Part shown: positions 14,976 through 53,747 of the stretch, piece by piece
Numbering within the stretch: position 1 is the first letter of the stretch
Layout of the letters: every line of letters begins with the position of its first letter
Assembly (NCBI RefSeq): GCF_018977255.1
Contig: NW_024704746.1
Location: 29,264,001 to 29,328,000, forward strand
Reading direction: 5' to 3'
From: Callorhinchus milii
Taxonomy: Eukaryota
DNA: 64,000 nt
Translations under genes and position numbers: made by a program
The notes under the pieces: generated by a model
What the model was told of the DNA's origin: nothing
What the model saw: only the letters and a program-made list of their open reading frames with translations
Databases searched by the model: none

Positions 14976-15540
14976 TATACACCTCGCAGCCTATCATTCT
15001 CTCTTCAATGGGTATGAATAATTAATCATTTCTATTTTTCTTTCGAGTAATATTCACTTAAAAAGAAAGCAGGAAGTCTTAAAATGTGAATATCAGGATT
15101 ATGAAAGCACATCATATTTGCATCCCTTCCACAAAACTGCTTAAAGTTGATTGCAGCCCAGAGAAAAACCTAAACATCGAGAGGAATGTGTTTTCACTCC
15201 ATAATAAGCAGCAAGAAGTAGGAGCCCACCTACTAACTCAAACCACTGTCACCCAGTTCAGCAGCTTGTGTTCTAATGAGCTCCCATGATGTTTGCACGT
15301 TTGCTCTCTGTTCTTCAGTCCTTGCTGCATGTCAGCACCCAGTGATTATCCTGACATTGAACACTACCAACAAGCTGGGTTGGGCTGAGTGTTGTGTCCA
15401 TGCCACAGATTGCAAATAGCATGTGCTTTATCCATGTTTCAACTTTGGAGAGCACTCGATTAACAGGAATATTCGCCCATATTCACTGAGATTCACATAT
15501 GATGTTCACTTGCCAAGGATGAATCATGCTGCTATTGAAC

Positions 15541-16020
15541 AGGCATGTCATTCAACAGGCATGTCATTCAACAGGCATGTCACTCAACAGGCATGTTATT
15601 CATCAGGCATGTCATTCATCAGGCATGTCATTCATCAGGCATGTCATTCAACAGGCATGTCATTCAACAGGCATGTCACTCAACAGGCATGTCATTCAAC
15701 AGGCATGTCACTCATCAGGCATGTCATTCATCAGGCATGTCATTCATCAGGCATGTCATTCAACAGGCATGTCACTCAACAGGCATGTCATTCAACAGGC
15801 ATGTCATTCAACAGGCATGTCATTCAACAGGCATGTCATTCATCAGGCATGTCATTCATCAGGCATGTCATTCATCAGGCATGTCATTCATCAGGCATGT
15901 CACTCAACAGGCATGTCATTCATCAGGCATGTCATTCATCAGGCATGTCATTCATCAGGCATGTCATTCATCAGGCATGTCACTCATCAGGCATGTCATT
16001 CATCAGGCATGTCATTCATC
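15541..16020 (+). repeat. Minisatellite, 30 x 16 bp (AGGCATGTCA-YTCAWC)
   Basis: 480 bp in exact 16-bp register with no indels; variant unit ends TTCAAC/CTCAAC/TTCATC/CTCATC. Confidence 0.97.
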
Positions 16021-17720
16021 AGTCATGCAATTGCACGTTAAATCCAACACGAGTTACTTAAAATAAACCAAAAGAACTAACCTGTCATCCTTCAGCAACA
16101 GGTATTGATTTGGTCACAACATAGACTGTTTGTTTGAAGACACGTTTGCTGTCAGACTCAGTTCAGTTCAGTAACTAGGAATCGCCAATTCACTCCTTTC
16201 TGGGTTTTTGATTAAAAGTTGCTGATTTTGAGCAATTGGAAGACTGTCCCTCACTACTCAAAAGCAAGTTCTTACAGTGTTGCCCCACGGAGTCCACTTC
16301 TTCTGAGCATTTTCAAAGGGTAAATGATGAGTATGTGAGTACCAAATCCAAAAGAGTTGGTGATCATTGAGGTCTCCCCAGTCCAAACATACTGATCATA
16401 TTTTTTCCCCCTGTTCTCTCTGGCATTTTCATTGTAACTTCACAGTTCACATCTGGTCACGATTCCACTCCAAATCTTCACTTGTTCTCTTCGAGCTCAG
16501 TGTTGCAGCATTGTTGGTCAAGATAAATGTGCACTAATTTCAACACCACCGTCTTGCAGCAATAATATTACACAGTACATTTACTTAGGTCTTCACATAT
16601 TGTGAGCAGATGGAGATCACCCAATGAACCCCTTTGCACCTTTGTGCAGGGAAGCTCGTTTGCAAGACTTTTTCAGGAATAATTTACACGTTTGCAATTT
16701 GCAACAGAAACGTCGTCGATGGAAAAGTGTGTCTGGTTCCATTCCAAATGTAGAAAATGTTTGTATAAAAATCCAGAATGCACATTTCACCTCTCCTGGC
16801 GATTTTGAAGGAAATAAAAAGTTCAATTTAATTAAACGTGTTGTAATCAGTCCATTGTTTTTTTTTTATGAAGGCATTGAAACGTATAATGTAAACAGAA
16901 TGATGCATTGCTGTGTCCAGCTTTGCTGTTCATCATGATTGAAGCACTTGCCAAACTAACTGAAGGGACTGTTTCACATTTGTCCAATTCTAGGAGTGAC
17001 TGCACAACAAATACTGTTTGAATCTCTCTCAGTGTAAACCACAAGCTTTGCATTGACATTCACCACTCTGCCTATTTATCTCATGTGTTCATACTCCTCT
17101 CTCTGTGTGTACAAAACCTAAAACTTTTGAGAAAATAAATCTGAAAGCAAAGATGAGGCTCTGCACAAGAGGTCCACGAGTTTCCTTCTCGACCACAGCA
17201 TTAAAGTGGACTAATTTCCTGCCCCCCACCCAAAAAAAAATAAGCCAACAACCAAAAAAAAAACACCTGTGGAAATAGAAGTCAATTGAAAGAAACTTCT
17301 CCCTTTGGTTTTTTTTCCTTTCTTTCATGACTCGAAGGCATCACAAATACAATACAGAGCTGTAATCATATTTATGGACAGTGATTGGACTTCTCGTTGT
17401 TTTTTTTTGGAGGGGGGGTTTTGTTAAAAAAAAAGTGTGAATGATAGCACTTTGGGAGATTTCAAGAAAACATGGATGGGTTATTTCTGTGTTTTCCTGG
17501 AATTACAAAACTGCACCAAAGTCTACGCCTGACGTCCTTGACATAACCTTCTCTTTTAAGCACAACCCAAAATGGTACACAAACACACATGTATATATAT
17601 TTATATATATAAAAATCCACGTTAATTTCTCCCCCCCTCCCTTTCCCTCTCTCTCTGTGTCTCTCTAACTAGTTCCAAACCTTTTTTTTGGGGGGTTGGG
17701 GAGGAGGGGGGGGTTTAAAA

Positions 17721-17878: not shown

Positions 17879-19666
17879 TCAGAAGTCGGTTTCTCGGTTC
17901 GAGTCCAAGCAGAGAGCGTAGAGGGACTTCCTGATGTCCGGGGGGCTCAGGGCTTTCAGGTTGGCCCCTGCCCCATTGTTAATACCTTCGCTATTTTCCA
18001 AAGCCCCGGCTTTGCCCAGAGATGTCCTACTCTTCCTCATCTCCTCCGAGGAACTGCCCTCCGCGCTGTCGTCGTCGTCGTTCAGGCTGCCCTGGTCCGC
18101 GTTGTCCGTCTCCCGGTGGTAGAAGTAGTTGAAGTTGGACACGATGACCGGCACCGGGAGGGCGATGGTCAACACCCCGGCGATGGCGCAGAGCGAGCCC
18201 ACGATCTTGCCCCCCATGGTGACCGGCCTCATGTCCCCGTAGCCCACGGTGGTCATGGTCACCACCGCCCACCAGAAAGCATCGGGGATGCTGGAGAAGA
18301 AGGACGACGGCTCATCCGCCTCGGCGAAGTACACGGCGCTGGAGAAGAGGATGACCCCGATGAAGAGGAAGAAGATGAGCAAGCCCAGCTCCCTCATGCT
18401 GGCCTTCAGGGTCTGGCCCAGGATCTGCAGCCCCTTGGAGTGCCTGGACAGCTTGAAGATCCTGAAGACCCTGACCAGCCGGATGACCCTCAGGATGGCC
18501 AGGGACATGGCCTGTTGGCCGTTTGACTGCTGTTCCGCCAGCTCCGTGCCCAGGGTGATGAAGTAGGGGAAGATGGCCACCACGTCGATGATGTTCATGA
18601 TGTCCCTGGAGAACACCGACTTGCTGGGGCAGGCGAAGAACCTCATCAGGAGCTCGAGGGTGAACCAGACCACGCAGGTGGTCTCGATGACGAAGAAGGG
18701 GTCGGTCAGGCTCATGTGGATGGAGGAGATGTGGGTGCCATTGGGGCCCACGAGGTTGTACCTCTCGTCCCGAAACTCGGGCAGCGTTTCCAGGCAGAAG
18801 ATGATGATGGAGATGACGATGACCAGGACGGACACGATGGCGATGCCTCGGGCCGGGCTGGAGCTCTCGGGGTACTCGAAGAGCAGCCAAAGCTGGCGTT
18901 GGAACTCCTGCTTGGGCAGAGGCTTCTCCTCCTCCTTGATGAAGCCCTCCTCCTCCCGGAACCTCTCCATGGCCTCGGCGCCCAGTTGGTAGAAGCGGAT
19001 CTCGTCGGCGAAGATGTCGATGGAGACGTTGACCGGTCTCCTGATCTTCCCGCCGGATTGATAGAAGTACAGGATGCCATCGAAGCTCGGGCGGTTCCGG
19101 TCGAAGAAGTACTCGTTCCTCAAGGGGTCGAAGTATCTCATCCTTTTCTGGGGGTCGCCCAGTAAGGTGTCCGGGAACTGGTTGATGGTACCCAGTTGGG
19201 TCTCGTACTTGAGGCCGGCGATGTTGACGATCACCCGCTCCGACCTGTTCCTGGCCAAGAACTCCAACTCCAAGCGGTTGTCCTCGGAAGGCACCTGGTC
19301 CTGGTCCTGCTCCAGCCGCCCCCTTGCCATGGAATCCAGCGAGTTCTCCCCGGCCACGTTGATGTCGTTCATCCTCGGGCAGGGAGAGGACCAGGGAGGC
19401 GGTGAGGGCGATGGGGAGGTGATGGAGGAGGAAGAGGAGGAGGTGGAGGGGGGGGTTAAGCCAGAGGGAGAGCAAGGCTTGGGAACTGGTTGCGAGGCTG
19501 ACTCTGACTGTGACTCCCGGAGGTCTCCGGCGATGAGGATGGTGAGGGGGGGGCTCGGGTCAGGCTGTGTGGGGAGTCTTTGCTGAGCTGTGCTGTTGCT
19601 GACCTCCCGGTCACACCACTCACACCGTTCTCCAAACTCTCCGGAGCCGTCTCCATCCCCAGACAT
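17879..19666 (-). CDS. KCNA5: Voltage-gated potassium channel Kv1.5 (Shaker family), single coding exon; true start probably ATG at 19656 with a 1-nt indel near 19546-19553
   Basis: The 595-aa ORF has a T1 domain ([18 protein letters not shown]...[17 protein letters not shown]), S1-S6, S4 [19 protein letters not shown], the TTVGYGD filter and PVP. Kv1.5-type features: [25 protein letters not shown], and C-terminal [17 protein letters not shown] (human [17 protein letters not shown]). Confidence 0.96.
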
Positions 19667-19722
19667 TAAATATTCAGCGTCAGAGCTGCTCGGTCAGCGG
19701 CTTCTGCGGCTACATTAACTCT
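17880..19722. other. GC/CpG-rich island covering the KCNA5 coding exon
   Basis: Sharp rise in GC and CpG relative to the AT-rich flanks; it continues to the gap edge. Confidence 0.8.
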
Positions 19723-52100: not shown

Positions 52101-52920
52101 ACAACAACAAGATTCCATTTATAGAGCGCCTTTCAAGTCGGGAGGACGTCCCAAGGCGCTGTACAGTTGGGTCAGGACCCGAGCAGGGGGGAAATGGTCA
52201 GGGTGAGGGGAGGGAAGGGAGGGAGCGAGGAGGGGGAGAGAGTCGAGAGGGGAGCTGAAGGCTCGGTCAAAGAGAAAGGCCTTGAGACCGGCCTTGAAGG
52301 AGGAAAGGGAGGAAGCGGCGAAGGCACTGGGGATAGAGTTCCAGAGCCTCGGGGCTGAGAGGCTGAAGGCCCGACCACCGATGGTAGGGCGGTTGGGGCG
52401 GGGGATGTGGAGCAGACCAGAGCCAGAGGAACGGAGGGTACGGACAGGTAGGGAGGGGGATAGTAAGTCAGAGAGATAGGAGGGAGCGAGGCCGTGAATG
52501 GCCTTGTAGGTGAGGATGAGGATCTTGAATTCAATCCTCTGGGGGATGGGGAGCCAGTGGAGGCGAGCGAGGGTGGGAGTGATGTGGTCGCGGTGTCTGG
52601 TGCGGGACAGTACACGAGCTGCAGAGTTCTGAATGACCTGCAGTGTGGAGGGAGGGCCGGGAAGGCCGACGAGGAGAGAGTTCCCATAGTCCAGCCTTGA
52701 GGTGATAAAGGCGTGGACCAGGGTTTCAGCCGCGTGAGGGGTGAGGTAGTGCCGTAGTCTGGCGATATTCCGGAGGTGATGGAAGGCGATGCCAGTTGTG
52801 CCGTGGATATGAGGGAGAAAGGACAGCTCAGGGTCGAACAGAACACCGAGGTTCCTGACCGGCTTTGAGAGGTGGAGAGTGCAGCCTTGGATGCTGATGC
52901 TGTCAGCGCCTGAGGTGCAT
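52101..52920 (-). mobile_element. Young 5'-truncated L2 LINE, ORF2 C-terminal part still open
   Basis: VRNLGVLFDPELSF, ETLVHAFITSRLDYGNSLL, HITPTLARLHWLP and GGRAFS..APRLWNS; (TTG)n tail; flanking GTTACA at 52095 and 52921. Confidence 0.95.
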
Positions 52921-53747
52921 GTTACACGCATTTATATAATGCCTTCCATATAGGGAGGACATCCTAAGGTGCTTGACAGGCCTGGCATGTCACCCGAGCT
53001 GGGGGTGTGAGCCGAGGCTGGGGAGGGGAAAGATGACATGATATATTGATGGACCAGCTTTGCACTAGTTTCATTTTCATCATTTTCACATTAGAGAATT
53101 GAATTTTTGCGGAAAATGTGAACTTTTTTAAGAAATGGTTTATAAATCTGGCATCAATGTGCATCATAGTGTTACTTGGGTATACAAAATGAATCATTAA
53201 ACAATGCAACTATTTAATATTCTACTGAGTAGCTACTTTCAACAATACACACCATTAAGAAGCATTGCAAAAGGAAAACTCCCTTTATATATATTTTTTC
53301 TATTTGGATTTTTTTTTAGCTTTTATGCACTTTACACTAAGATATATCACAGGAATGGAATATAGTTTTCCAATTTTTAGGTCAGGTTAAAGAAATAATC
53401 TCAAAGGGAGCAAAAACTGTAATTAACACTGGTATATAGATGAAAAATTTAAGAAAGATTCCTATGCCATAAAATAAGCTGTTACAGTTAACATTTACTT
53501 TTATGCCTTTTACAATTCTTTCAACAAAAATATCTATATTTGTAAAGTCATTAAGCACACTGAAGATATATATTTGAACTAGATGTTACTTCTGTCGAAA
53601 ATACAGAGGAACCTGAAAGATAGACTAACGTCAATAAAGAAGATGAATTCTACAATATTCATACTGACAAAACCTTTCCTACATTTTGATGAAAACACAA
53701 ATGAATGGAGCTCAAAGCAAAGCATTTGATAAGAATGCTTGTGAACT

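Follow-up and report, generated by a model that had tools for sequence, protein, structure and literature searches.

The window analysed here, a 64,000-nucleotide stretch of Callorhinchus milii contig NW_024704746.1, carries on its minus strand the elephant shark KCNA5 gene, which encodes Kv1.5 in a single coding stretch and fails one family feature, the in-frame start motif. The channel body shows T1, S1-S6, the S4 arginines, the TVGYG filter, the PVP hinge and the C-terminal ETDF, together with the Pfam domains PF02214 and PF00520 (assigned on P0002). In a tree of 22 rows, from which one planned row (P0003) that did not match the trimming pattern was left out, the gene lay within a 16-row KCNA5 clade (support 99/99), apart from the other Kv1 paralogues. 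Since it is the sister of six elasmobranch KCNA5 rows (99/98) and its end branch (0.14) equals the tree median, the channel body is, judging from this sequence comparison, still under selection. A pseudogene was ruled out, the body being unbroken and its branch length ordinary. The KCNA5 clade also included a Scyliorhinus retifer protein named KCNA3 (Kv1.3) at its source (P0011, AWO14626.1), which we take to be the shark electroreceptor potassium channel of Bellono 2018, and many shark KCNA5 records carry the names member 1-like or 3-like.

Upstream of KCNA5, at distances of about 45 and 95 kb, the same strand carries two more Kv1 genes; one of them (L010) reads like KCNA1. KCNA5 is the last gene of this same-strand KCNA6-KCNA1-KCNA5 cluster, an order compared with the one given in text passages of PMC3141671. 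No second KCNA5 was present among the scored matches in the species' own genome, and the single-copy gene has its usual setting, with KCNA1 and a third Kv1 gene as neighbours. Two further Kv1 loci of this genome are split (L016/L020 on C31 and L017/L018 on C1589) and presumably KCNA7-like; the C1589 match holds one TGA, perhaps an intron edge.

The features of the KCNA5 locus considered below are as follows.

17879-19372, minus strand: intact channel body of Kv1.5 (KCNA5), 497 aa, beginning at the conserved internal Met (MNDIN)
19666-17879, minus strand: long ORF of 595 aa, whose first 98 aa are a putative new N-terminus overprinted on the old one
19656-19456, minus strand: 66-codon ORF from the ancestral start codon, in frame +1 relative to the body, ending in TAA
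19621-19656, minus strand: vertebrate Kv1.5 start motif, decayed, with Thr3, Pro5, Glu6 and Val12, each in 0/105 orthologue motifs
19710-19715, minus strand: start-stop element (ATG TAG) in a weak context, upstream of the 19666 and 19656 starts
19328-19330, minus strand: point at which the public gene models (482/483 aa) begin, 14 codons beyond the conserved internal Met
19546-19553, minus strand: run of eight C (C8), eight in both read contigs; candidate break site only
19532-19553 and 19434-19455, minus strand: 22-nt direct repeat, copies 18/22 alike, both with a C8 run, 98 nt apart
19597, minus strand: SNP of run X5 that leaves the 66-codon frame's residue unchanged and turns Asn into Asp in the 19666 frame
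19374-19603, minus strand: candidate cryptic 230-nt intron, the removal of which would fuse old codons 1-18 with the internal Met

Along the minus strand the ATGs come in the order 19715 (the start-stop element), 19666 (in frame with the body), 19656 (out of frame), 19372 and 19330 (both in frame). The 19666 ATG, the only in-frame one upstream of 19656, stands in a weak context (TATTTAATGT, T at -3 and +4) with an in-frame stop 30 nt upstream, while the 19656 ATG has the strong context GGGATGG (G at -3 and +4); A is found at -3 of 19372 and T at -3 of 19330. The distance from 19656 to 19372 is 284 nt, and adding one base would give 95 + 497 = 592 aa. The initial annotation had described a Kv1.5-like N-terminus out of frame with the channel body; its coordinates, ATG contexts, distance and arithmetic were all reproduced on the sequence, and the central claim was confirmed, the 19656 frame stopping at 19456. 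The open state of the 19666 frame across the overlap is at chance level (P about 0.25-0.34, Markov resamples).

From 19330 on, the long ORF is identical to the stored record P0121. Compared with Callorhinchus milii XP_007902374.1, an older record, the window has one more Asp in an Asp run and one Glu/Asp change (about 18080 and 17990, minus strand), either an allele or an assembly difference. An exact look-up of the 595-aa and 497-aa products in the protein collection returned neither. Another public model, P0122 (UniRef A0A4W3J9W2), begins with third-frame residues near the C8 run; it is apparently a forced model and a sign of how annotators struggled here. The 482/483-aa public models, used in published alignments (PMC5429088, text passages), probably start too late.

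The annotation had preferred a homopolymer assembly error at the C8 run and proposed counting C8 against C9 in reads. Five runs of two studies contained 0.81-0.87 of the sampled words (X1-X3 each 0.87). Four runs were tried on 19440-19722, of which X2 and X4 yielded no contig, an outcome that speaks neither for nor against the assembly, and X1 and X5, from two studies, one each. The X1 contig (depth 20.4) spans 19440-19722 with 0 differences and 0 gaps; the X5 contig (depth 7.2, other study) spans 19440-19681 with 0 gaps and the one SNP, which marks another haplotype. Both cross the 19656 start, the C8 run and the TAA without joints or loose ends, and both show eight C rather than nine at contig level, which leaves the assembly error unsupported. 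This evidence consists of contigs, which drop rare alleles, and covers 19440-19722, the stretch 19372-19439 lying outside; X1, possibly the source of the assembly itself, counts as RNA only by guess, the library type being unrecorded. Of the sampled words of 19100-19722, 13% are absent from X1, whose contig matches 19440-19722 exactly, so that a sequence difference in X1 further down than 19440 is possible.

To characterize the displaced peptide, we used a 12-column Kv1.5 start-motif profile built from 31 distinct orthologue motifs. These came from M[ED][ILV] in the first 30 residues of 105 of 131 fetched proteins (the species' own three excluded), a pattern of which position 3 formed part; the remaining 26 were paralogues, fusions, divergent starts or records with a later Met start. 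The fetched set is heavy in birds, reptiles and teleosts and contains no other chimaera. A pattern without position 3 found the motif in 101 of 103 proteins starting M[ED] and ending TD[LF]. On the profile, the 19656 peptide scored 14.3 bits, the best of 2,426 ATG-started 12-mers in the window (next 8.4) and also of its 124,055 six-frame 12-mers (next 10.1), and the 19666 start scored -27.9. Against amphibian orthologues such as P0023, 8 of 11 residues match. The comparison of N-termini proposed by the annotation was run on shark and ray records: 18 of 24 start M[DE][IL][AV]L, six start at an internal Met, and none resembles the 19666 frame at its start. The profile score and these 18 starts support homology of the 19656 peptide to the Kv1.5 N-terminus; by sequence, the displaced 66-codon frame begins with the ancestral N-terminus. 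A search with the 66-aa peptide among longer proteins scored 0 of 229 candidates, which is weak evidence.

Among the short shark records, those of two species are accompanied by a full-length record, and for Stegostoma, Mustelus, Heterodontus and Pristiophorus (P0009, P0010, P0124, P0125) the sole fetched record starts at an internal Met, through either annotation truncation or a similar break. The KCNA10-like paralogue L014 of the same genome (G000:C19:8106414-8110631) shares the start motif, retaining its hydrophobic pattern, with an in-frame ATG located five codons before the motif.

The displaced motif is decayed. Orthologues keep Leu5 in 105/105, Val, Leu or Ile at position 6 in 104/105 and Gly12 in 92/105, whereas the elephant shark lacks an in-frame N-terminal M[ED]xAL[VL] motif and carries it out of frame, substituted at positions 3, 5, 6 and 12; its 14.3 bits fall below all 31 distinct orthologue motifs (15.2-44.9). 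One missing base is thus not the explanation, because the motif has lost residues that orthologues retain, and substitutions found in no orthologue further counter the assembly error. Since four positions carry residues seen in 0/105 motifs and the score is lower than that of every one of the 31, we infer that the break is old, release from selection being able to cause such decay. Among the fetched records, and judged on proteins only, this is the first case of an out-of-frame, decayed Kv1.5 start motif.

Where the frame broke is less clear from homology. The annotation had pointed to the C8 run as the site; a second C8 run lies at 19455-19448, just past the 19456 stop, and homology does not place the break, local alignments to eight relatives (24 comparisons) giving signals that were weak, mixed and spread over the three frames. 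Up to about codon 42 the old frame is similar to Heptranchias (P 0.065), the body frame directly before the internal Met is similar to catshark N-termini (P 0.01 with P0132, one of the 24 comparisons), and the third frame also scores against P0011. From start to internal Met, the distance is 284 nt here and 51-65 codons in those relatives, 10 of the 29 listed, in which the pattern detected the Met. Two 22-nt copies at 98-nt spacing had P 0.00-0.03 in three resampling schemes and are possibly the edges of a frame-breaking insertion; because 284 - 98 gives 62 codons, a 98-nt insertion would be a fair guess for the break. A 98-nt tandem duplication was ruled out, the likeness being limited to the 22-nt edges. 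For a repeat-element origin of the extra stretch, own-genome matches were found only over its low-complexity part (query 242-340 of 341).

The evidence favours what the annotation had offered besides, that a frameshift specific to this lineage left the gene with either a new N-terminus or initiation at 19372. Our leading reading, to which we give not quite an even chance, is that the N-terminus is out of frame, the body intact and the channel likely rescued by the ATG 10 bases upstream, with a new 98-residue N-terminus. A non-triplet indel, perhaps the 98-nt insertion, would have fallen between old codon 12 and the stop. Scanning ribosomes would meet the weak in-frame 19666 ATG first and make the 595-aa channel; 10 nt later the strong old ATG at 19656 would produce a dead-end 66-aa peptide and lower channel output, most ribosomes that pass 19666 being caught there, and a minor 497-aa form could arise by leaky scanning or reinitiation at 19372. 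Because 19656 would trap scanning ribosomes and brief elongation favours reinitiation (PMC10275272, text passages), with 66 codons being long for reinitiation downstream of the 19656 frame, most of the channel would likeliest come from 19666, with a lowered yield. The layout is that of closely spaced competing AUGs, a weak in-frame ATG followed 10 nt on by a strong out-of-frame one. Passages of PMC9743702 report that initiation at the upstream start suffers when an out-of-frame ATG follows within about 17 nt (for a weak start in HeLa, activity 0.33 at +8 and 0.74 at +14), that such layouts lower output in yeast and HeLa reporters, and that they are depleted in yeast and human genomes. The elephant shark differs from those systems in that the out-of-frame ATG is the gene's own ancestral start.

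Three of the four motif substitutions are silent in the 19666 frame at the changed second position (weak; about P 0.1, a hand estimate), and Thr3 requires a second change, perhaps not silent in this frame; the pattern weakly fits selection on it. The lone SNP (n = 1), while silent for the old peptide, alters a residue of the 19666 product, the opposite of what selection on the new frame would give. Relatives of residues 1-142 of the 595-aa ORF amounted to 1 match among 1,556 candidates, the species' own record, and phmmer of this 142-aa part against 1.84 billion representatives gave 0 matches. That the new N-terminus is selected in the second frame, with the old start kept as a competing ORF setting the amount and form of Kv1.5 in heart or electroreceptors, is a doubtful extension.

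The main rival accepts the same break and has translation of the channel begin chiefly at the conserved Met 19372 (497 aa), reached by leaky scanning, reinitiation or a shorter 5' end, the upstream part being a leader and the 19666 frame open by chance; we rate it as unlikely, though a serious contender. Sharks, coelacanth and gar retain the MND motif, with alignment beginning at its first residue, A stands at -3, and the six internal-Met starts among 24 elasmobranch records resemble such an arrangement, although these short records may be annotation truncations and the MN[DN] pattern occurred in only 16 of 134 fetched proteins. The chance-level opening of the 19666 frame and the SNP that is non-silent there point the same way, but three ATGs lie upstream, one of them strong with a 66-codon frame, and the X1 contig (RNA only as a guess) continues through 19722. 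N-terminally short Kv1.5 forms, reported for mouse and human in passages of PMC2229503, also speak for a start at 19372. It is quite improbable that a gained or cryptic intron removing 3n+2 bases joins the old start to the body. The 230-nt candidate combines the best-scoring donor, by an unfitted scoring table, with the most pyrimidine-rich acceptor in matching phase, preceded by about 100 nt free of AG, and 10 phase-compatible pairs pass loose cut-offs. Its acceptor, on the other hand, is an unusual GAG, and GAG splice acceptors are rare; neither contig shows a joint or loose end (only X1 being guessed to be RNA), and motif decay is unexpected if the old start is still in use. Splicing within the Kv1.5 coding exon has been reported for mouse (PMC2229503 citing Attali 1993, text passages), whereas vertebrate KCNA genes except KCNA7 are intronless according to passages of PMC3141671.

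Very improbable in our estimation is either a mistake in the assembly or a length allele that segregates, with the actual or prevalent sequence one base longer and encoding the 592-aa channel: a C8 run is a typical error site, contigs drop rare variants, the platforms are unrecorded and X1 may be the assembly's source, but X1 and X5, from two studies and one with its own SNP, are gapless over the whole 66-codon frame, and a missing base fails to account for the motif decay. Homopolymer frameshift errors do occur in long-read assemblies, and the locus is like them in its one-base frame offset with C8 upstream of the stop, and unlike them in two respects, the eight C found in independent contigs and the decay of the displaced peptide. 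If instead an indel error within 19372-19439 hid a shared frame, the lesion would be a nonsense codon, the TAA itself, and the channel would come via 19372 or readthrough, the old start being still cut off from the body. That stretch is low-complexity and beyond contig cover, X1-X3 hold only 0.87 of sampled words each, and the old frame is Heptranchias-like to about codon 42; filters may account for the missing words, however, and the catshark likeness of the body frame argues against it, although the third frame also scores against P0011. We consider this reading highly improbable. Barely credible is recoding at C8, in which ribosomes from 19656 shift -1, or polymerase adds one C, to give a fused channel. 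C8 lies in the old frame upstream of the stop and permits re-pairing of two proline tRNAs, yet a canonical -1 slippery site is X XXY YYZ with Y = A or U, which is absent; the downstream 76 nt fold weakly (-12.6 kcal/mol, no hairpin in the first 15 nt, folded without pseudoknots), so a programmed -1 site with slippery heptamer and structure 5-9 nt downstream was not found at C8. The contig guessed to be RNA has no extra C, and the motif is decayed. Summed over the readings that imply it, we consider it very likely that the genome itself has the old start in another frame or cut short by a stop. This amounts to a genuine and probably old loss of the ancestral N-terminus, specific to the lineage.

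A start-motif loss of this kind is tolerable because human Kv1.5 without residues 2-19 still makes current. Passages of PMC8050386 report that these residues carry a PKC-dependent degradation signal and that the channel lacking them conducts and escapes PKC-driven degradation. A similar S/T-x-R/K site occurs in only 6 of 105 orthologue N-termini, so the PKC-degradation role of the start region may not be general. What was presumed an assembly error thus becomes a natural experiment on start-motif function: a motif that persists from rays to birds, and that the KCNA10-like paralogue has as well, was dropped in a lineage in wide use as a slow-evolving vertebrate reference. If the rescue from 19666 is true, it would be N-terminal replacement by overprinting, caught in the act.

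Compared with KCNA5/Kv1.5 of other jawed vertebrates, the elephant shark gene is alike in tree position, neighbourhood, T1, S4, pore, C-terminal motif and single coding stretch, and differs in the start motif, which 105 of 131 other fetched proteins retain and which is out of frame and decayed here. Short Kv1.5 forms include human delta-N209 and a mouse intra-exonic splice form (PMC2229503, text passages) and a skate 'short Kv1.5' transcript (bioRxiv 10.1101/274449, text passages). The likeness is a channel made without its normal N-terminus from an internal start; those forms, however, lose most of T1 and coexist with a normal long form, whereas the elephant shark T1 is whole and its genome, unlike those of the short-form species, could yield the normal long form only through recoding or splicing. 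Chimaeras are electroreceptive. Kcna5/Kv1.5 marks the electroreceptors (ampullary organs) of paddlefish in a study that used the 482-aa elephant shark record (PMC5429088, text passages). Text passages of the literature on Callorhinchus Kv1.5/KCNA5, a scope that leaves subscription papers, figures and supplements outside, do not describe the break, and those of bioRxiv 10.1101/2023.04.14.536701, PMC13069148 and PMC11979771 hold nothing on it.

Elsewhere in the window, positions 15519-16066 form a tandem repeat, probably a minisatellite, open in all three plus-strand frames for 170-180 codons, and a 270-aa ORF lies on the minus strand at 52119-52931.
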